Of a stretch of DNA of 8,396 nt, positions 1 to 8,396 are shown one piece after another (the first letter of the stretch is position 1; every line of letters begins with the position of its first letter). A model generated the notes under the pieces. It made no database searches and had not been told where the DNA came from. It was given only the letters and a program-made list of their open reading frames with translations. The stretch is from a virus. Taxonomy: Duplodnaviria; Heunggongvirae; Uroviricota; Caudoviricetes. A program made the position numbers and the translations under genes. The stretch lies in the IMG/VR virus record IMGVR_UViG_2778261464_000009, positions 1 to 8,396 of that record, one strand, 5' to 3'.

Positions 1-69
1 AATAATTTCTGGTCAGACTCTGAATACCGACTCAATAAACACGGCTCTGTATTAAATGCTGTATTAATC

Positions 70-267
70 ATGCTGGCGCAACATGCTCTGCTTATAGCAA
101 TTTCAAGCGACTTAAATGCATATGGTGTTGTGTGTGAGTTCGACTGGAATGATGGAAATGGTCAGGAAGGATGGCCTCCAATGGATGGTAGCGAAGGAAT
201 AAGAATTACCGATATCGATACATCAGGAATATTTGATTCAGATGATATGACTATCAAGGCCGCCTGA
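70..267 (+). CDS. Hypothetical acidic protein; may be the C-terminal part of a longer CDS, since this frame has no stop back to position 1
   Basis: ORF track 70..267; the same frame is open from nt 1. No Shine-Dalgarno before ATG 70, so the true start may lie upstream of the window. A GC hairpin follows the stop. Confidence 0.3.
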   Translation: MLAQHALLIAISSDLNAYGVVCEFDWNDGNGQEGWPPMDGSEGIRITDIDTSGIFDSDDMTIKAA

Positions 268-342
268 GTGCGGCTTTACCGCATACCAATAACGCTTCAC
301 TCGAGGCGTTTTCGTTATGCAATCAAACAGAAGGAGAATCCT

Positions 343-513
343 ATGCAACAGTTCGCTATTGCAGGGGCGGCATCGGTTCGCCCTTTCAACCCGATTTTAT
401 CGGTACAGCATTCACGAAAAAATATTTTAACCGGAGCAGACTTTAAACAACCAAGAATGAAAAGTTTGCTCGAAAAGCTTTGGGATATTTTTAAACAACA
501 AGGCCGTCCATGA
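343..513 (+). CDS. Small hypothetical phage protein (56 aa); the track ORF 268..513 trimmed to the RBS-supported start
   Basis: AGGAG at 332-336 sits 6 nt before ATG 343. The stop TGA 511-513 overlaps a downstream ATG at 510 (ATGA). Confidence 0.35.
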   Translation: MQQFAIAGAASVRPFNPILSVQHSRKNILTGADFKQPRMKSLLEKLWDIFKQQGRP

Positions 514-620
514 GTTTTACAGATAACTGGTCAGACGAAGAATTCATTCGTCAGATGAAAGAAATGCTCAATCAGCACAAAGAACAGGAGAAAGATGATG
601 ATTCTGACTCTGAAAGATGA
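510..620 (+). CDS. Possible 36-aa acidic micro-ORF (MSFTDNWSDEEFIRQMKEMLNQHKEQEKDDDSDSER)
   Basis: ATG 510 overlaps the upstream stop. Weak RBS (AAGG). It overlaps the next CDS by 26 nt in another frame. Not in the ORF track because of its size. Confidence 0.2.
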   Translation: MSFTDNWSDEEFIRQMKEMLNQHKEQEKDDDSDSER

Positions 621-906
621 GCGTGAAATATCGCAAATAATCGCAAGTTTTACTGATGAAGATTACGAACGAATCAACAGTGAAGTTGATCGCCTCTGCA
701 AACGTTGCGACCCAATAAGCGAAATGCTTCGCTCATATAAACCAGATGAACACACTAAGGACGCTATCGACTGGCTGGAAGATTATGACTGTAACTATCA
801 GGAAAAAGCCGCTGAATGGTTCTGGGATGCAATAACCGAAAGAGTTAAGGCTGAATATGCCTTCGCAATATTCAAACGCAGACACGTTTATGGAGAAGCA
901 GCATGA
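595..906 (+). CDS. Hypothetical phage protein (103 aa), translationally coupled to recT
   Basis: AGGAG at 586-590; ATG at 595 and 598 (598 gives the better spacing). Stop TGA 904-906 overlaps the recT ATG 903 (ATGA). No recognisable family. Confidence 0.55.
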   Translation: MMILTLKDEREISQIIASFTDEDYERINSEVDRLCKRCDPISEMLRSYKPDEHTKDAIDWLEDYDCNYQEKAAEWFWDAITERVKAEYAFAIFKRRHVYGEAA

Positions 907-1814
907 GCAATATCGTTGAATTCGTTAAACAGCAAGAGCAGTTATTCTGCGGAGCATTGACTGAACAGACGGTGACATGGGCTAAGGAAAGCCAGTTTGC
1001 AATTCAGTATTTCCAGAAAAATGATTACCTGGCTAAAACAGCACTGGCAAATCCAACCAGCGCACAGAACGCCATCATCAATGTTGCGGCGATCGGTATC
1101 ACCTTAAACCCGGCTAGCAAACTGGCTTATCTGGTTCCGCGCGACGGCATGGTGTGCCTTGATATCAGTTATATGGGATTGCTCCATATTGCAATGGAGT
1201 CTGGTGTTATCTCATGGGGTCAGGCAAAACTTGTTCATGCTAACGATACCTATGAGTCAAACGGGCTTGATAAAGCACCAACCCATAAATACAACGCCTT
1301 CGGTGATCGTGGTGATATTGTTGGCGTTTACTGCACAGTTAAGACGCCAGCAGGTGATTATCTAACGGAAGAGATGAGTCTGGCTGAAATTGAGGCTGTA
1401 AGGAAAACAAGCAAGGCAGCATTCAGCGATAAAGGACCATGGGTAAATCACTGGAATGAGATGGCGCGAAAGACGGTCGTAAAGCGTGCAAGCAAGTATT
1501 GGCCTAAGGCATCACGTCTTGATAGTGCTATTCACGTACTAAACGAAGAAGAAGGTGTGTGGACTGAACCAGTTATGCCGCACAAATCAGAGGAAGATAT
1601 CCGCGAAGATGAACGGAAACGCCAGCAGGAAATAATGGATAAAGCACAACTTCTTTGCGATGAAATGGCTCAGGCAGAAAACATGGATGATTTGAAGCGA
1701 TATTTTGCAGAAGCATATCGCCTGACATCTGGAATGAAATTGCAGCAGAACGTACAAGCCATTTACATAGAATGCAAAGCGAAACTGGAGGTTGCCAGTG
1801 AGCAAACTGTATGA
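903..1814 (+). CDS. recT: RecT-family single-strand annealing recombinase
   Basis: 303-aa product with the segment GPWVNHWNEMARKTVVKRASKYWP, which closely matches the conserved E. coli RecT region GPWVTHWEEMAKKTAIRRLFKYLP as recalled. GGAG 7 nt upstream of ATG 903. Confidence 0.85.
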   Translation: MSNIVEFVKQQEQLFCGALTEQTVTWAKESQFAIQYFQKNDYLAKTALANPTSAQNAIINVAAIGITLNPASKLAYLVPRDGMVCLDISYMGLLHIAMESGVISWGQAKLVHANDTYESNGLDKAPTHKYNAFGDRGDIVGVYCTVKTPAGDYLTEEMSLAEIEAVRKTSKAAFSDKGPWVNHWNEMARKTVVKRASKYWPKASRLDSAIHVLNEEEGVWTEPVMPHKSEEDIREDERKRQQEIMDKAQLLCDEMAQAENMDDLKRYFAEAYRLTSGMKLQQNVQAIYIECKAKLEVASEQTV

Positions 1815-2280
1815 AATTGCCAATGAATACGCAAAATTGATGGATTCAGATTTAGAACCAGAGATGATTGCTGACACAATAGAAGGCATGGAAGGAGAAT
1901 TTACCGATAAAATAGAGCAACTTCTTGCCATTATTAAAAATGAATCTGGTTATGCTGAACGCCTCAAGGAAGAGGCAAGGTCGCTGAATGAGCGAGCCGC
2001 AGTAATTCAAAATAAGATTGACAGCATTATGGCGTATATAGCGGCATCGCTTGAAATGGTTGGCAAGAAAAAGATTCGAGCAGGTATTCACCAGGTAACA
2101 ATCCGCAAACCGTCAGAAATTGTAGAAATAATCGACTCAAGCGCCCTTCCTCCTGAATACGTTGAGTTTGAAACGACAATTAAAGCCGACAAACTGGCAA
2201 TCAAACACCAACTAAAAGCAGGAATAAATATCCCCGGTGCTCAACTCAAAGTTGGGAAACCTTCACTTCTTATCAAATAA
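1798..2280 (+). CDS. Siphovirus Gp157-family protein (often partnered with phage annealing proteins)
   Basis: N-terminal LYEIANEYAKL...IADTIEGMEGEF, then a coiled-coil, then a C-terminal VTIRKPSEIVEIID...LPPEYV...IPGAQL pattern, consistent with the Gp157 family as recalled. GGAGG at 1787-1791 is 6 nt before GTG 1798; the track start TTG 1792 is the alternative. Overlaps the recT 3' end. Confidence 0.6.
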   Translation: MSKLYEIANEYAKLMDSDLEPEMIADTIEGMEGEFTDKIEQLLAIIKNESGYAERLKEEARSLNERAAVIQNKIDSIMAYIAASLEMVGKKKIRAGIHQVTIRKPSEIVEIIDSSALPPEYVEFETTIKADKLAIKHQLKAGINIPGAQLKVGKPSLLIK

Positions 2281-2291
2281 CGGTATCGCCT

Positions 2292-2606
2292 ATGAAAAAG
2301 ACTCCATGGGAGAAATGGGAAGTCGATTTCTTGCGCGAGGTAGCGGCGACAATGCCAGTTGAAGTTATCGCAGAAAAACTGGAAAGGACTGAAAAAGCAG
2401 TAATGGCGAAAGCAACAAGGATTGGCGCTGACATTGTTAGCCGACTTCGTGGAAGACGCTGGACAAGAGCCGAAGTATCACTTTTCGGTAAGTTCTCCGC
2501 AGAAGAAATAGCAATTGCAACCTGCCGCTCAATTTATTCAGTAAGAGCTATGCGATACAAGCTAAAAAAACTCGATGAAGAAAGAGCAGGCATACAAATA
2601 AATTAA
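2292..2606 (+). CDS. Hypothetical protein (104 aa) with two internal helix-rich repeats, possibly a Myb/HTH-like DNA-binding fold
   Basis: ORF track. Two similar segments ([32 protein letters not shown] and [31 protein letters not shown]). Weak RBS. Confidence 0.5.
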
Positions 2607-2622
2607 CAAAGAGGAATTTACC

Positions 2623-2787
2623 ATGAGAGGGCTTGCATACAATCCCGGCATTCTTCCGGCAGAAATGATTATTCGCCAACGCGTAAAGCCAATGCCATCG
2701 AGAGAGGAATTGCTTAAGAGAAATTCTTTTCCATCAGTAAATCAAAACAAATATCTGAATGCGATGTGGCGGAGTGGGAAGAAATGA
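2623..2787 (+). CDS. Small hypothetical protein (54 aa, basic)
   Basis: AAGAGG RBS before ATG 2623. Stop TGA 2785-2787 overlaps ATG 2784 of the next CDS (ATGA). Below the track length cutoff. Confidence 0.3.
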
Positions 2788-3266
2788 AACAAATGTCACT
2801 AATTGAGATGGATGATTTTCTGAAAGGTAAATGCATCCCACGAGATTTAAAGGTTAACGAAACAAACGCTGAATATCTGGTGCGTAAATTTGCTGAAGCG
2901 GAGGCCAAGTGCGCGGCGCTGGCCGAAGACCAACAGAAAGCGATTGAGTCAATTAAGCAGGCTGATGCGGCTGTTAAGTTGGCACACGAGAAGTTTTCGG
3001 CGCTGGCGGCGGAGAATGCGGGTCTGAAACACGCAATGGCCGTAACTCTTGAGCATGTGTCGGTAACGGATGCAGGGCAGGCCGGAGTTGCTGCAATGAT
3101 TATCAACGATGCCCTACACCACAGCGAAACCCCAACCACCGATGCTTTCCTGGCTGAAGTACGGGCGCAGGGGGTAGAGATGTTTGCTGACCATCTGTTG
3201 TGCCCAGACCTTGATGACACTATCCGTGACTTTGCTGCCCAGCTTCGCAAAGGAGGCAACCAGTGA
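2784..3266 (+). CDS. Ala-rich coiled-coil phage protein, possibly an Ea22-like module
   Basis: Track ORF 2766..3266. ATG 2784 is preferred because of the ATGA coupling and a GGAG at 2770-2773; GTG 2766 is the alternative. The stop overlaps the next start (GTGA). Confidence 0.55.
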
Positions 3267-3832
3267 GCGAAATTAATTACCAGGCACTGCGTGAGGCGGC
3301 AGAGAAAGCAACGTGGGGAGACTGGGACTCATATAAACCACACCGTGGCGCACGTGGTTATGAGGTCCGACTAAGTAGTCAGGCCATTGCGCAACACGTC
3401 CTGAAAAACAACGCTGAATTTATTGCTGCCTTTAATCCAAAGATTGCTTTGGCACTACTGGATGAACGGGAAAGAAACCAGCAATACATCAAACGCCGCG
3501 ACCAGGAGAACGAGGATATTGCGCTAACAGTAGGGAAGCTGAGAGTTGAGCTGGAAGCCGCAGAGAAGCGCATTGCAGAGCTGGAAAGCAACGAAGTCCG
3601 TGAAGTCGGAAATCAGTTTCTTGTTGTTCGCCATCCTGGGAAAACTCCTGTCATCAAGCACTGCACTGGTGACCTGGAAGAGTTTCTGCGGAAGTTAATC
3701 GAACAAGACCCGTTAGTAACTATCGACATCATTACGCATCGCTATTACGGGATTGGCGGTCAATGGGTTCAGGATGCAGTTGAGTATCTGCATATGATGT
3801 CTGACGCTGGCATTCGCATCAAAGGAGAGTGA
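3263..3832 (+). CDS. Ead/Ea22-like family protein
   Basis: AGGAGG at 3251-3256 is 6 nt before GTG 3263. The N-terminus [17 protein letters not shown]... resembles prophage Ea22-like proteins as recalled; central coiled-coil. Position between the recombination module and xis matches lambda ea22. Confidence 0.55.
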   Translation: MSEINYQALREAAEKATWGDWDSYKPHRGARGYEVRLSSQAIAQHVLKNNAEFIAAFNPKIALALLDERERNQQYIKRRDQENEDIALTVGKLRVELEAAEKRIAELESNEVREVGNQFLVVRHPGKTPVIKHCTGDLEEFLRKLIEQDPLVTIDIITHRYYGIGGQWVQDAVEYLHMMSDAGIRIKGE

Positions 3833-3833
3833 T

Positions 3834-4043
3834 ATGGCTATCGCTGCAAGTTACACCATGCATCTCTATTGTGATTGCCTCCAGTGTACAGATGGCAAAT
3901 ATAAGTCGCCAGACTTCGGTGAGTATATCGGTACGTCATGGGCTGGCTGTGCAAAAGAGGCGCGCAAGGACGGCTGGCGAATAAGCAAAGACAAAACACG
4001 TGCTTTTGCGCCCGGGCATAAAGTTTTGAGGATTAACAAATGA
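3834..4043 (+). CDS. Small Cys-rich protein (69 aa), possible zinc-ribbon
   Basis: AGGAG at 3823-3827 before ATG 3834. The CDC-x2-C motif plus a further Cys suggests metal binding. Stop TGA 4041-4043 overlaps ATG 4040. Confidence 0.5.
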   Translation: MAIAASYTMHLYCDCLQCTDGKYKSPDFGEYIGTSWAGCAKEARKDGWRISKDKTRAFAPGHKVLRINK

Positions 4044-4738
4044 CAACTATTACCAGAGAGCGACTGCTGACAATCAGGCAGTGGCGCGAAACATACGGAC
4101 CGGGTAGCAACGTTGTACTGCCAGCAGAAGAAGCGGAAGAACTGGCACGAATTGCACTGGCATCGATCGAAGCGGAGCCTGTAGCGTGGAAATGGCGGCT
4201 TACTAGTCTTTTTGACGGTGTGCAAATTGGCCCGTGGCGGGTGTGTCTTGCGCCACTATCACCCGGCAAGGGGGATGGGTGCAAGACAGAAGCTATTCCA
4301 CTTTACACCGCCCCGCCAGTACCGGTGGTACCTGCTGCATTACCTGAGAACGACGATGAGGACGGGCATGACATTGATTATCTTGAGCCATCTGAAGTTT
4401 ACGCGCTTGGGCGAACATCTGGCTGGAACGCCTGCCGCGCTGCCATGCTTCATAGTGCCGAACCTGTAAGCCAGGCTTACAAGTTGAACGCGCTGGCTGG
4501 CAACTCTCCGGTAACTCCGGATGGTTGGATAAGCTGTAGTGAGCGAATGCCGAACGATAAACAGTATGTTTGGTGTTGGGGTAAGTCTTACGGTTGGACT
4601 GAGTGCGATACCTTCGAAGGGTATTACGATTGGTCGAGAAACAAATGGTGGGCAGTTACTGACGATGGGGAAGAGCCGGCATCGAAAGTAACCCACTGGA
4701 TGCCGCTGCCAGAACCGCCGGAGCAGGATGGTGAATGA
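4040..4738 (+). CDS. DUF551-domain prophage protein (232 aa)
   Basis: The C-terminal region (PDGWISCSERMPNDKQYVWCW...VTHWMPLPEPP) matches the DUF551 signature as recalled. The N-terminal half is a separate, unrecognised domain. Confidence 0.6.
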   Translation: MTTITRERLLTIRQWRETYGPGSNVVLPAEEAEELARIALASIEAEPVAWKWRLTSLFDGVQIGPWRVCLAPLSPGKGDGCKTEAIPLYTAPPVPVVPAALPENDDEDGHDIDYLEPSEVYALGRTSGWNACRAAMLHSAEPVSQAYKLNALAGNSPVTPDGWISCSERMPNDKQYVWCWGKSYGWTECDTFEGYYDWSRNKWWAVTDDGEEPASKVTHWMPLPEPPEQDGE

Positions 4739-4824
4739 TGCCGCCAGTTAAAGTTGTGATTATCACTTTGGTGATGATAGTGATTGCGAGAATCATGTCT
4801 GGTGAAGTTTGGTGGATATGGTAA
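4735..4824 (+). CDS. Predicted 29-aa hydrophobic single-helix membrane peptide (MMPPVKVVIITLVMIVIARIMSGEVWWIW)
   Basis: ATG 4735 overlaps the upstream stop TGA 4736-4738. One continuous hydrophobic stretch with a Trp-rich C-terminus. Two hairpin-plus-T-tract structures follow directly. Confidence 0.3.
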   Translation: MMPPVKVVIITLVMIVIARIMSGEVWWIW

Positions 4825-4857
4825 TGGCTAAGGCAGCAGCAGAGCGCAACTAACAAT

Positions 4858-4882
4858 CCTCGCTCTCGCGGGGATTTCTTTT
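4858..4882 (+). terminator. Putative intrinsic terminator (first of a tandem pair)
   Basis: Stem CCTCGC/GCGGGG (5 Watson-Crick pairs plus one G-U) with loop TCTC, followed by ATTTCTTTT. Confidence 0.4.
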
Positions 4883-4887
4883 ATCTG

Positions 4888-4912
4888 AACTCGCTACGGC
4901 GAGTTTTGTTTT
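4888..4912 (+). terminator. Putative intrinsic terminator (second of the pair)
   Basis: Perfect 7-bp stem AACTCGC/GCGAGTT with loop TACG, followed by TTGTTTT. Confidence 0.45.
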
Positions 4913-4925
4913 ATGGAGATGATAA

Positions 4926-5093
4926 ATGCACTTCCGAGTCACAGGAGAATGGAATGGAGAGCCATTCAACAGAGTTATCGAAGCAGAGAACATCAACGAC
5001 TGCTATGACCACTGGATGCTATGGGCGCAGATAGCACATGCAGACGTAACCAATATTCGAATTGAAGAACTGAAAGAACACCAAGCCGCCTGA
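4926..5093 (+). CDS. Small hypothetical protein (55 aa)
   Basis: GGAG at 4915-4918 is 7 nt before ATG 4926. Product MHFRVTGEWNGEPFNRVIEAENINDCYDHWMLWAQIAHADVTNIRIEELKEHQAA. The stop lies inside a terminator hairpin. Below the track cutoff. Confidence 0.45.
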   Translation: MHFRVTGEWNGEPFNRVIEAENINDCYDHWMLWAQIAHADVTNIRIEELKEHQAA

Positions 5094-5108
5094 TGGCGGT
5101 TTTTTATT
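5083..5108 (+). terminator. Putative intrinsic terminator
   Basis: GC stem GCCGCC/GGCGG(T) with loop TGAT, followed by TTTTTTATT. Confidence 0.45.
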
Positions 5109-5119
5109 GGAGACAAGAA

Positions 5120-5464
5120 ATGTCAGATTTGGCTATGAAGGTTTTGAAATGGCAATCGACTGGCGATGTTGGCATCAGTAGCGCAACTCTTGCCTCAATC
5201 GCATGTGGACTGAAAAAGAATATCTATGGTCATAGCTTCGGTGCTCCACATGACGCAGCCGATTTCCGACGATGCGTTGCGCTTGTCGAGCAGATTCCAG
5301 AAATCAGGGATTCATTCGACAAGGTTGCAAAGCGCGTTCCGGCATTCAAAGGAATCCTCAACGAATGGGATTCCCTCGTTGCTCTGTTGAAGTCTGAAAT
5401 GAAGATACACGGAAACAAAGCACCAGAGACTTACAGAAGAATCAGCGAGCTACGCAAGGACTAA
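5120..5464 (+). CDS. Hypothetical protein (114 aa), uncharacterised accessory gene just upstream of xis
   Basis: Track ORF 5093..5464 trimmed to ATG 5120, which has a GGAG at 5109-5112 with 7-nt spacing; ATG 5093 sits inside the terminator stem. No recognisable family. Confidence 0.55.
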   Translation: MSDLAMKVLKWQSTGDVGISSATLASIACGLKKNIYGHSFGAPHDAADFRRCVALVEQIPEIRDSFDKVAKRVPAFKGILNEWDSLVALLKSEMKIHGNKAPETYRRISELRKD

Positions 5465-5553
5465 CCACAGCCTCACACTCGATGAGGCCTGTTCATTTCT
5501 CAAGATATCCAGACCTACCGCAATAATACCAACGCAATAAATGGAGATTCCAG

Positions 5554-5901
5554 GTGGAAGAAGAAATCTTCACTCGTGAAGAGGCTGCGTCGTATCTGAA
5601 GGTAGACAAAGGCACTATCACGCAGTGGATACGAAGTGGACGACTTCAAGCCGCAAAGATAAATCCAGATAAACCTAAAAGCCCATATCGCATTTGCAAG
5701 TCAGACTGCATTGCGGCGCTTAAGTCTGTGAGACACAATAGCGCGGTGAATGCGGTTGATGTGCAGGAGGTTAAAGCATGTCAATCAAACTACGCGGTGG
5801 CACGTGGCACTGCGATTTCGTCGCGCCAGATGGATCAAGAGTTAGACGCTCTCTTGAAACATCGGACAAAAGGCAAGCGCAAGAACTTCACGATCGTCTG
5901 A
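5554..5901 (+). CDS. xis: Excisionase-family DNA-binding protein (Xis)
   Basis: N-terminal FTREEAASYLKVDKGTITQWIRSGRLQAAKI matches the excisionase-family HTH pattern. GGAG is 7 nt before GTG 5554. It lies directly upstream of int and overlaps it by 124 nt in another frame; the 3' extent is uncertain. Confidence 0.6.
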   Translation: MEEEIFTREEAASYLKVDKGTITQWIRSGRLQAAKINPDKPKSPYRICKSDCIAALKSVRHNSAVNAVDVQEVKACQSNYAVARGTAISSRQMDQELDALLKHRTKGKRKNFTIV

Positions 5902-6938
5902 AAGCAGAAGCGTGGAGAGTAAAAAATCTCGGGGAATCACCGAAAAAGCTATTCAAGGAAGCCTGCATACGGTGGCTGCGTGAGAAATCGGATAAGAAGT
6001 CCATTGATGATGACAAGAGCATTATATCGTTCTGGATGTTGCACTTCAGAGAAACCATTCTCTCTGACATAACAACAGAAAAAATAATGGAGGCGGTAGA
6101 CGGGATGGAAAACCGCCGCCATCGCCTGAACTGGGAGATGAGCCGGGACAGGTGTTTGCGGCTTGGCAAGCCAGTGCCGGAGTATAAACCAAAGCTGGCA
6201 AGCAAAGGAACGAAGACGCGGCATCTGGCAATACTTCGCGCTATTCTCAATATGGCTGTTGAATGGGGATGGCTTGACAGGGCGCCAAAAATATCAACAC
6301 CACGCGTTAAGAATGGACGAATCAGATGGCTTACAGAGGAGGAATCGAAGCGCCTGTTTGCAGAAATTGCTCCTCATTTCTTCCCTGTGGTCATGTTTGC
6401 AATCACGACAGGCCTTCGCCGTTCCAACGTTACAGACCTTGAGTGGTCACAGGTCGATCTGGATAAGAAAATGGCATGGATGCACCCTGATGAAACAAAA
6501 GCTGGCAATGCGATCGGAGTTCCTCTTAACGAAACCGCATGCCAGATATTAAGAAAACAGCAGGGGCTCCATAAGAGATGGGTATTTGTCCACACCAAAC
6601 CTGCCTACCGAAGCGACGGAACAAAAACAGCAGCGGTAAGGAAGATGAGAACCGACAGCAACAAGGCATGGAAGGGAGCGTTAAAGCGGGCAGGCATTAG
6701 CAACTTCCGCTTCCATGACCTGAGGCATACCTGGGCAAGCTGGCTGGTTCAGTCTGGTGTCTCTCTTCTTGCGCTTAAAGAGATGGGAGGATGGGAAACT
6801 CTCGAAATGGTTCAAAGATACGCCCACCTTTCAGCCGGGCATCTCACCGAGCACGCGAGCAAAATCGATGCGATTATAAGTCGCAATGGCACAAATACGG
6901 CACAAGAGGAGAACGTAGTTTACTTAAATGCGAGGTAA
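5778..6938 (+). CDS. int: Tyrosine-type site-specific integrase (phage integrase family)
   Basis: 386 aa. N-terminal arm-type domain (MSIKLRGGTWHCDFVAPDGSRVRRS...). Catalytic residues in context: TGLRRSN, HDLRHTWAS, and Tyr in MVQRYAHL. AGGAGG is 7 nt before ATG 5778. Ends 14 bp from the tRNA. Confidence 0.9.
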   Translation: MSIKLRGGTWHCDFVAPDGSRVRRSLETSDKRQAQELHDRLKAEAWRVKNLGESPKKLFKEACIRWLREKSDKKSIDDDKSIISFWMLHFRETILSDITTEKIMEAVDGMENRRHRLNWEMSRDRCLRLGKPVPEYKPKLASKGTKTRHLAILRAILNMAVEWGWLDRAPKISTPRVKNGRIRWLTEEESKRLFAEIAPHFFPVVMFAITTGLRRSNVTDLEWSQVDLDKKMAWMHPDETKAGNAIGVPLNETACQILRKQQGLHKRWVFVHTKPAYRSDGTKTAAVRKMRTDSNKAWKGALKRAGISNFRFHDLRHTWASWLVQSGVSLLALKEMGGWETLEMVQRYAHLSAGHLTEHASKIDAIISRNGTNTAQEENVVYLNAR

Positions 6939-6952
6939 CTTATTGATTTAAA

Positions 6953-7028
6953 TGGTGCCGATAATAGGAGTCGAACCTACGACCTTCGCATTACGAATGC
7001 GCTGCTCTACCAACTGAGCTATATCGGC
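6953..7028 (-). tRNA. thrW: tRNA-Thr (anticodon CGU)
   Basis: The reverse complement is a 76-nt tRNA: GCCGATATAGCTCAGTTGGTAGAGCAGCGCATTCGTAATGCGAAGGTCGTAGGTTCGACTCCTATTATCGGCACCA. 7-bp acceptor stem, GTTCGA T-loop, anticodon CGT at positions 34-36, encoded CCA end. Confidence 0.9.
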
Positions 7029-7142
7029 CCTGAAAGGACATGTTCACGAACGTGAATCACGGTGGGCAAGGTTAAAACTAACCGGGCGATGCGTCAATGG
7101 CCTTGTGAATCAAATGGCTACTTTTGCATCACCCGGTTTTAT

Positions 7143-8396
7143 TTACGCACGAATGGTGTAATCACCAATGCCGATCCACTTGTAAGTGGTCAGTGCTTCC
7201 AGCCCCATTGGGCCACGCGCGTGGAGTTTTTGTGTGCTTACCGCCACTTCCGCACCCAGTCCAAACTGACCGCCGTCGGTAAAACGCGTAGAAGCGTTAA
7301 CGTAAACAGCGGACGAATCCACTTCGTTAACAAAACGCTGGGCGTTGCGCATATCGCGGGTCAGGATCGCATCGGAGTGTTGTGTGCCGTGTTCACGAAT
7401 ATGGGCGATGGCATCGTCAAGATCGCTGACGATTTTGACGTTCAAATCTAATGACAGAAACTCATCGTCATACTCTTCGGCTTTAACCGCCACCACCTTC
7501 GCGGGGCCAGCCTGCAACTGTGTCAGCGCAGCTGCATCTGCGTGTAATGTCACGCCGCTTTCCGCCATTTGTTTGCTTAATACGGGCAGGAAGCTATCGG
7601 CGATGTTTTTATTCACCAGCAACGTTTCTACCGTATTACATGTGCTCGGACGCTGAGTTTTCGCGTTGACGATCACTTTTAATGCTTCAGCGATCTCTGC
7701 ACTTTCATCAACATAAATATGGCATACGCCTATACCACCTGTGATCACCGGGATCGTCGACTGTTCGCGGCACAGTTTATGCAAACCAGCCCCGCCGCGC
7801 GGGATCAGCATGTCGATGTATTTATCCATACGCAGCATTTCACTGACCAGCGCACGGTCAGGATTATCAATTGCCTGCACGGCACCCGCCGGTAAGCCAC
7901 AGGATTTCAGGGCGTCCTGAATCACCGCCACCGTTGCCGCGTTAGTGCGACAGGTTTCTTTGCCGCCGCGCAGGATCACCGCGTTACCGGTTTTCAGGCA
8001 CAGCGAAGCGACATCAACCGTCACGTTCGGGCGCGCTTCATAAATCACGCCAATAACCCCCAGCGGTACGCGACGACGCTCAAGACGCAGGCCGCTGTCC
8101 AGTACGCCGCCATCGATTACCTGCCCCACCGGATCGGCGAGGTTGCACACCTGACGTACATCGTCGGCAATGCCTTTCAGCCGTGCGGGCGTCAGTGCCA
8201 GACGGTCAAGCATCGCTTCGCTAAGGCCATTGGCACGCGCGTCAGCAACATCCTGGGCGTTAGCGTTGAGGATGATTTTGCTCTGTGCTTCCAGTTCATC
8301 GGCGATTTTTTCCAGCACGCGATTTTTTTCGCGGCTTGAGAGTTGCGCTAATTTATACGAGGCTTGCTTCGCGGCAATGCCCATTTGCTCCAGCAT
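7143..8396 (-). CDS. proA: Gamma-glutamyl phosphate reductase (glutamate-5-semialdehyde dehydrogenase), full length
   Basis: 417-aa product beginning [39 protein letters not shown]... and ending ...[12 protein letters not shown], near-identical to E. coli ProA as recalled. The start codon is at the window's right edge. Confidence 0.95.

Follow-up and report, generated by a model that had tools for sequence, protein, structure and literature searches.

The exo-xis region of lambda and Shiga toxin (Stx) phages holds a variable gene set downstream of ea22 (PMC8614690), and its genes influence the lysis-lysogeny decision and host physiology (PMC3824215, PMC10789677). In the nin accessory region of lambdoid phages the genes are packed unusually tightly (PMC8022706). 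DUF551 is a portable domain, present in Ea22 V2, in YfdS and in a dATP/dGTP pyrophosphohydrolase, as described in the nuclear magnetic resonance study of Ea22 (PMC10834534), and YfdS is the sole DUF551 member with a reported phenotype, for which no mechanism is known (PMC4776307). Here we analysed a gene pair in the window, by which we mean the whole stretch of 8,396 nucleotides (nt) of the IMG/VR virus record IMGVR_UViG_2778261464_000009 (positions 1 to 8,396). The pair consists of a gene for a small protein of 69 amino acids (aa) belonging to the family PHROG 926 (3834-4043) and a gene for a 232-aa mosaic cassette protein with a C-terminal DUF551 domain (4040-4738), both on the plus strand and joined by an ATGA start/stop overlap (4040-4043, plus strand). 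The original prediction took the coupled pair as a candidate functional unit. On balance we think it probable that these are two independent early accessory genes, the first encoding a small zinc-stabilised binder and the second a recombining modular DUF551 adaptor.

Both open reading frames (ORFs) and their overlap are present as originally described, and both ORFs are real genes, not chance ORFs. A Shine-Dalgarno-like AAGGAG lies 7 nt before position 3834 of the small gene, and a Shine-Dalgarno-like GAGGA lies 9 nt before position 4040 of the 232-aa gene. A comparison of the small gene in 29 distinct DNA versions gave variable sites distributed 13/5/32 over codon positions 1/2/3, with 2699 synonymous and 1170 nonsynonymous codon differences, and the codon-position pattern means that the small gene is under purifying selection. 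An antisense ORF of 119 aa (3866-4225) was rejected, as it is broken by stop codons in 10 of the 29 variants and the variation fits the annotated frame; a further plus-strand ORF (3829-3984) that overlaps the small gene was considered as well. Both genes are already deposited, one as 'hypothetical protein' and the other as 'DUF551 domain-containing protein', the latter being the name under which NCBI holds the exact 232-aa protein (P0047), and both belong to known uncharacterised families.

Whether the two genes work together was judged from how they keep company in other genomes, for which the 80 best matches per query were sampled, so the counts are biased towards close relatives. In 79 IMG/VR loci with the small gene, the gene that follows it 3' is an ATGA-coupled cassette gene (a relative of the 232-aa gene) with DUF551 in 37 loci and without DUF551 in 29, it is an unrelated 72-aa membrane ORF in 10, and it is cut by the contig end in 3. 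A complete ATGA-coupled cassette gene is thus found in 66 of 79 loci (84%), plus the 3 contig-cut ones. In the reverse direction, just 1 of the 80 loci selected with this DUF551 variant has the small gene upstream, as do 14 of the 80 selected with this N-terminal cassette, and the upstream place of the cassette gene is taken by at least 12 other genes. The co-occurrence proposed as a check of the functional unit therefore holds in the forward direction (66-69 of 79) and fails in reverse (1/80, 14/80), so that it lacks the reciprocity of a two-gene module; the linkage is real but one-sided, and what the small gene is linked to is the cassette family rather than DUF551. Small proteins identical to one another adjoin several different N-terminal cassettes, and over the whole set 14 distinct N-terminal 9-mers were counted.

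The overlap itself is no special evidence of a unit, as had been proposed, because 5 of the 14 operon junctions overlap by 4 nt in the same way, and two others are a 1-nt overlap or a 1-nt spacer. The ATGA would then be ordinary translational coupling, as at many operon junctions. Upstream of the small gene, the conserved junction AAAGGAGAGTGATATG (3821-3836, plus strand) serves two purposes, since the final codons of the upstream gene (K-G-E-stop) are also the Shine-Dalgarno of the small gene. Nearly all of the 79 loci have this junction 5' of the small gene, whichever gene precedes (a 62-aa basic protein in 56 of 79 and an Ea22-like protein in 15 of 79), and it is reused 3' of the small gene where the 72-aa membrane ORF comes next. 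Unrelated upstream proteins end in K-G-E/D (IRIKGE, LRTKGE, TGIKGD) because their last codons are the Shine-Dalgarno of the next gene. The same AAAGGAGAGTGATATG was also seen to recur between different gene pairs (loci L001-L080). Conserved gene order together with shared junctions explains the linkage at least as well as joint function does, and the adjacency of the two genes would mostly come from shared cassette junctions and conserved order, not from an obligate two-protein machine.

The alternative that deserves most attention is that the small Cys protein and the cassette protein, possibly together with the Ea22-like protein, do form a functional unit, in which, for example, the small protein binds a conserved joint or regulates the cassette protein, and co-translation through ATGA fixes their ratio. 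We regard this as unlikely, although not negligibly so. The 66 complete and 3 contig-truncated coupled cassette genes speak for it, and so does the recurrence of the order at a distance (percentages are small-protein identities): within its nin region, a Kosakonia prophage (63%) has an Ea22-like gene, the small gene, ATGA and a 328-aa cassette protein with DUF551, and a Klebsiella Uetakevirus (45%) has an Ea22-like gene, the small gene, ATGA and a cassette protein without DUF551, where the partners share just the joints. The block also moves between backgrounds, as the small gene and the DUF551 gene are found together in the nin region of E. coli 24A16CRGN010 (L082), between replication gene P and hokD/rem, on the P1-like phage-plasmid RCS47 (L087), and in a P22-type Erf/SSB/Abc2 backbone, and the block changes from one recombination-module backbone to another. 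Joints conserved at the protein level (J2, J3 and J6, see below) could be docking sites. Against a unit stand the reverse counts with the many alternative upstream genes, the presence of DUF551 in just 37 of the 79 downstream genes with the membrane ORF in 10, the identical small proteins beside different cassettes, and an overlap that is generic in this operon. Furthermore, no cassette partner was found next to the small-protein homologues of Pantoea (58%), of a metagenomic relative (60%), of Klebsiella phage VLCpiS10a, or of the Ackermannviridae and Rogunavirus homologues, such as those of the virulent phages Det7 and AHS24, where the small gene stands alone. A functional unit is in our opinion at best loosely supported. 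As a separate observation, 549 of 6295 matching places in the search of E. coli genomes were on plasmids.

The C-terminus of the 232-aa protein had been called DUF551-like, and this proved correct: PF04448 matches aa 162-228 (4523-4723, plus strand) over profile positions 1-68 of 68 with E 2.8e-17 and 63.8 bits (cut-off 22), and the existing annotation of P0047 agrees. The edge motifs of the domain are present, W-I-S-C-S-E-R-M-P at the start and H-W-M-P-L-P at the end, and W163, I164, C166, S167, P171 and W220 are invariant in 55 homologues. AlphaFold predicts four strands in this part (predicted local distance difference test, pLDDT, 65-88 by 10-residue blocks over aa 161-230), in what would be an all-beta SH3/Tudor-like barrel, while aa 1-160 score 30-63; DUF551 is thus predicted to be the sole confidently folding part. 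A search of the PDB with the DUF551 profile gave no match.

The preceding part had been described as an unrecognised N-terminal domain of 130 aa. It is true that the first 160 aa have no Pfam, NCBIfam or PADLOC match; on the other hand, the PHROG models phrog_60, 660, 5117 and 3323 match the 232-aa protein, and the low pLDDT and the alignment do not describe one domain. In the alignment of the 55 homologues, short conserved joints separate segments that are replaced wholesale, the proteins share the conserved start MTT(I/L/F)T, and breakpoints in BLAST coverage maps lie near residues 37, 99, 139, 164 and 194, in agreement with the joints. When 74 proteins with all joints were typed, the five slots had 8/9/4/9/12 cassette types in 44 distinct combinations, and the DUF551 core is itself among the swapped slots. 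The 232-aa protein is therefore not a two-domain protein, and its N-terminal 160 aa are a chain of exchangeable cassettes.

The joints, all on the plus strand, differ in what is conserved. Joint J2 (A36-V48, ARIALASIEAEPV, 4145-4183; ARIALASLEAEPV across homologues), in which I38-A45 and P47 are nearly invariant, appears constrained at the protein level because codon position 3 (identity 0.64) is less identical than positions 1+2 (0.89). Joint J3 (Y89-P98, YTAPPVPVVP, 4304-4333; YAAPPVPVVP across homologues) is a proline-rich linker with P93 and P98 invariant and Y89, A91, P92 and P95-V97 nearly invariant (identity 0.84 at positions 1+2, 0.54 at position 3). Joint J6 (T218-P227, THWMPLPEPP, 4691-4720) is the C-terminal edge of DUF551, with W220 invariant and H219 and M221-P227 nearly so (0.95 at positions 1+2, 0.75 at position 3). 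J2, J3 and J6 are thus conserved as peptides under ordinary purifying selection. The remaining two are conserved as DNA: joint J4 (G128-L137, GWNACRAAML, 4421-4450; W129 to L137 conserved) because its position-3 identity is 0.88, and joint J5 (S156-P171, SPVTPDGWISCSERMP, 4505-4552), the N-terminal edge of DUF551, with position-3 identity of 0.92, which is 0.91 between genes with unrelated DUF551 cores and 0.93 within one core type. J5 is a probable recombination joint, as its identity across unrelated cores fits homologous recombination at joints, which we take as the likely mechanism of shuffling. Several relatives stop right after J4 without DUF551, and others bear different C-termini instead.

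To hypothesize, the product of the second gene would be organised as beads on a string, with five exchangeable cassettes of which the last is the DUF551 barrel, its core swapped between conserved edges; homologous recombination at the joints, J4 and J5 at the least, would re-assort the cassettes, and the protein may act as a modular adaptor or binder.

Such combinatorial mosaicism, which is extreme, is also what a counter-defence or host-takeover arsenal would show, with or without the small protein, if each cassette (including the DUF551 core) bound a different host protein of immunity or housekeeping and shuffling at the joints were under arms-race selection. Early accessory regions of this kind (exo-xis type, nin, phage-plasmid) do house host-modulating and anti-restriction genes, a Lar family gene is present in the equivalent region of strain MB53, exo-xis genes affect lysis-lysogeny and host physiology (PMC3824215, PMC10789677), and DUF551 is joined to other effector-type proteins (PMC10834534). 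Nonetheless, mosaicism is a common feature of lambdoid accessory regions and does not have to mean an arms race, J2, J3 and J6 show ordinary purifying selection, and there was no match of the family to PADLOC or to annotated anti-defence families; neither of the two proteins matches the PADLOC or NCBIfam models of known defence or toxin-antitoxin systems. We hold the arsenal to be improbable. A bolder version, to which we also give little chance, is that the MTT(I/L/F)T cassette proteins are a dedicated combinatorial system for making multi-headed host-targeting or counter-defence proteins, in which the constant joints (J4 and J5 at the DNA level) would let recombination re-assort at least five cassette slots, and the zinc protein of PHROG 926 would often be co-translated with them, as a partner that recognises one constant joint.

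As for the first gene, the CDC-x2-C cluster and a further Cys that had been noticed in its product are there, as C13-D-C15-x2-C18 (codons of C13, D14, C15 and C18 at 3870-3887, plus strand, the N-terminal part of the proposed metal site) and C39 (3948-3950, plus strand). C13, C15, C18 and H62 (codon 4017-4019, plus strand) do not vary among 13 full-length homologues with identities down to 56%, while T or V takes the place of C39 in some close homologues and Cys stands there in just 57% of the family. Cys was counted among 129 diverse members at position 13 in 127, at 18 in 102, at 39 in 74, at 15 in 68 and at 59 in 52. Positions 15 and 59 exclude each other (C15 only in 61 members, C59 only in 46, both in 4, neither in 1; Fisher p 1.5e-25, without phylogeny correction), position 62 is His or Cys in 84 of 85 ungapped family members, and at the seven sites no ungapped family member has fewer than four Cys/His. 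The C15/C59 pattern reads as the signature of a single putative metal site with swappable ligands. Metal binding by the small protein is therefore plausible, the ligands being probably C13, C15, C18 and, as the proposed fourth one, H62 in place of C39, and we infer that the metal would be zinc. The earlier idea of a Cys-based metal site is thus kept in its general form, but without the further Cys. Its more specific form, a zinc ribbon, has to be dropped, as there are no two CxxC knuckles and the predicted fold is alpha/beta (AlphaFold pLDDT 79.7). Structure prediction, which had been recommended for both proteins, gave a fold of the small protein that matches no solved structure, and was confident in the 232-aa protein for DUF551 alone.

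The family of the small protein is wide. The phrog_926 profile matches the 69-aa protein with E 1.5e-36 over residues 1-69, which are profile positions 1-69 of 69, so it is a PHROG 926 member, as are 70 of 71 diverse family members. A profile search of 1.84 billion representative proteins returned 418 clusters (defined at 50% identity) at E<=1e-3, nearly all of 60-80 aa, and tblastn of a phage collection returned 433 matching phage records, 312 of them at <60% identity, which include virulent Ackermannviridae (Det7, PhaxI, SFP10), Rogunavirus and Klebsiella, Dickeya and Agrobacterium phages. Stx phages such as VT2-Sakai and Min27 carry the small gene at 97% identity. To judge from these matches, PHROG 926 is a broad family, present in temperate and virulent phages, and not a lambdoid speciality. 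Searches for a described relative were negative: Pfam, NCBIfam and PADLOC models did not match the small protein, a PDB sequence search gave only a chance match to a tail protein (E 1.9), Foldseek against BFVD found only uncharacterised homologues, and 71 diverse family members had no shared match in Pfam. A relationship to Lar was rejected, since just 1 of the 71 members touches the Lar PHROG (E 8e-5), and a fibronectin type II/matrixin match of one member (P0199) was a false positive. In a single case (P0292) the family domain is fused to an HTH_17 excisionase-type DNA-binding domain, and a 134-aa protein from the representative search (P0167) contains the PHROG 926 domain twice in tandem (two matched stretches, E 5e-73).

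It is very improbable that the small protein is the positional and functional counterpart of lambda Ea8.5, a zinc-containing homeodomain/zinc-finger hybrid (PMC8614690), as in spite of its same place directly after the Ea22-like gene and a weak match (E 0.01) between the family profile and plant ZF-HD homeodomains in the helix-GWRI segment, no Ea8.5 homologue was matched and the model is not helical, for which reasons we judged the ZF-HD match to be due to chance.

Returning to two independent accessory genes, the first would encode a small alpha/beta protein held by one tetrahedral zinc site (C13/C15/C18/H62), with C59 replacing C15 as a ligand in other PHROG 926 subfamilies. Its product most likely acts alone because it is present without a partner gene in virulent phages, and it may do so by binding a host factor or nucleic acid. 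Several points weigh against this reading. The small gene is strongly tied to the cassette gene (84%), the tie persists at 63% identity in Kosakonia and 45% in Klebsiella, and it holds in regions of the exo-xis type, in nin regions and on a P1-like phage-plasmid, so the persistent linkage could reflect a functional tie and not synteny alone. As for the zinc site, C13 alone is nearly invariant over the whole family, the C15/C59 statistic is uncorrected for phylogeny, and the site is predicted from sequence. In addition, the roles of binder and adaptor are deduced from fold class and context, the homologues being without annotated function.

What the window shows is the left arm of a lambdoid/P22-like prophage that has its integration site at thrW, beside proA. 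E. coli is the host of this lambda-like prophage, and both genes are in its early-left region; an E. coli assembly (GCA_902810155.1) has a gene order identical to the window. The early-left operon is tightly packed and runs entirely on the plus strand, from RecT (903-1814) through a Gp157/Gam-like gene, several small genes and the Ea22-like gene to the gene pair, which sits where the gene content varies, after the Ea22-like gene and before xis/int. The gene at 3263-3832 (plus strand) encodes a coiled-coil protein of 189 aa ending in ...GIRIKGE, which belongs to the Ead/Ea22 family (PF13935, E 1.2e-31, 110.6 bits, cut-off 27). Before it, a 160-aa protein gene (2784-3266, plus strand) has a mobile N-terminal cassette. 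This cassette also heads the gene 3' of the small gene in two loci (L062, L065), as well as a 120-aa protein whose end resembles DUF551 (…THWAVIPKAPEAGA). Among the loci selected with the DUF551 variant, no upstream neighbour of the DUF551 genes is commoner than this 120-aa protein. In a Kosakonia radicincitans prophage (L248, 2411-2998), the Ea22-like coiled-coil protein encoded upstream of the small gene has a C-terminal DnaJ-type CxxCxGxG zinc-finger pair, and such a finger pair may explain the name 'molecular chaperone DnaJ' of an E. coli cassette relative (P0079).

Directly 3' of the pair, a strongly hydrophobic ORF of 29 aa (MMPPVKVVIITLVMIVIARIMSGEVWWIW, 4735-4824, plus strand) has a 4-nt overlap with the 232-aa gene at its stop (ATGATG). 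Variants of it were found in just 3 of 247 related loci, always after an ...EQDGE ending, so it is too rarely conserved to call and its standing as a gene is uncertain. Two terminator-like hairpins in tandem, both with T-runs (4855-4876 and 4887-4906, plus strand), close the gene block, and a third one (5083-5102) lies across the junction of a 55-aa and a 123-aa gene; a terminator consensus scan gave 6 sites against 1.7 expected from shuffles, as a pattern match only. Further on there are an excisionase-type helix-turn-helix gene with a GTG start (5554-5901, plus strand), the integrase (5778-6938, plus strand), tRNA-Thr(CGU) (6953-7028, minus strand) and the host gene proA (7143-8396, minus strand). 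The excisionase-like ORF overlaps the integrase ORF by 124 nt, an overlap that is also present in the gene calls of the identical E. coli locus, and one of the starts may be mis-set.

By themselves, the two genes are routine, ordinary prophage accessory genes, and no long-standing question is opened by the pair. Three points are nevertheless of some value. The ligand swap within PHROG 926 gives a testable prediction for a zinc site made of C13, C15, C18 and H62, and not of C39. Cassettes that re-assort between defined joints explain the difficulty of classifying the DUF551 proteins of enterobacterial prophages, and also their fragmentation when clustering is based on identity. Stx-converting phages carry these genes in their exo-xis region, which influences lysogeny and induction, and because of this any function that is found would be relevant to Stx phages.

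Compared with known systems, the pair is closest in position to the exo-xis genes found in lambda and in Stx phages, which are likewise early-left genes between the recombination genes and xis/int, after an Ea22-like gene, and likewise small, non-essential and mosaic. With the known members of that region (Ea8.5, Orf60a, Orf61, Orf63 and Orf73) the pair showed no relationship in sequence or predicted fold, the small protein showed no similarity in sequence or fold to the solved Ea8.5 homologues, and the exo-xis literature that we searched has no study of either gene. Classical zinc ribbons and Lar-type proteins are similar to the small protein in being small and Cys-rich and in occupying the same accessory regions (in strain MB53 the Lar family gene is near the Ea22-like gene), but the small protein differs from classical zinc ribbons in having no two CxxC knuckles and an alpha/beta predicted fold. 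PHROG 926, which it matches over its full length, is itself unannotated, and the putative ligand pattern of C13, C18, H/C62 and either C15 or C59 is our own proposal, outside any family description. Membership in DUF551 adds no mechanism, because no DUF551 protein has a demonstrated molecular function, as was rightly stated in the original prediction for the proteins of enterobacterial prophages. In architecture, YfdS of CPS-53 and Ea22 V2 of Stx phages resemble the 232-aa protein, whose module is its C-terminal 67 aa, in carrying DUF551 as a portable C-terminal module in a prophage accessory gene, and DUF550 fusions use DUF551 as a portable C-terminal module as well. What differs is that DUF551 here follows four further swappable cassettes and not a coiled coil or an enzyme.

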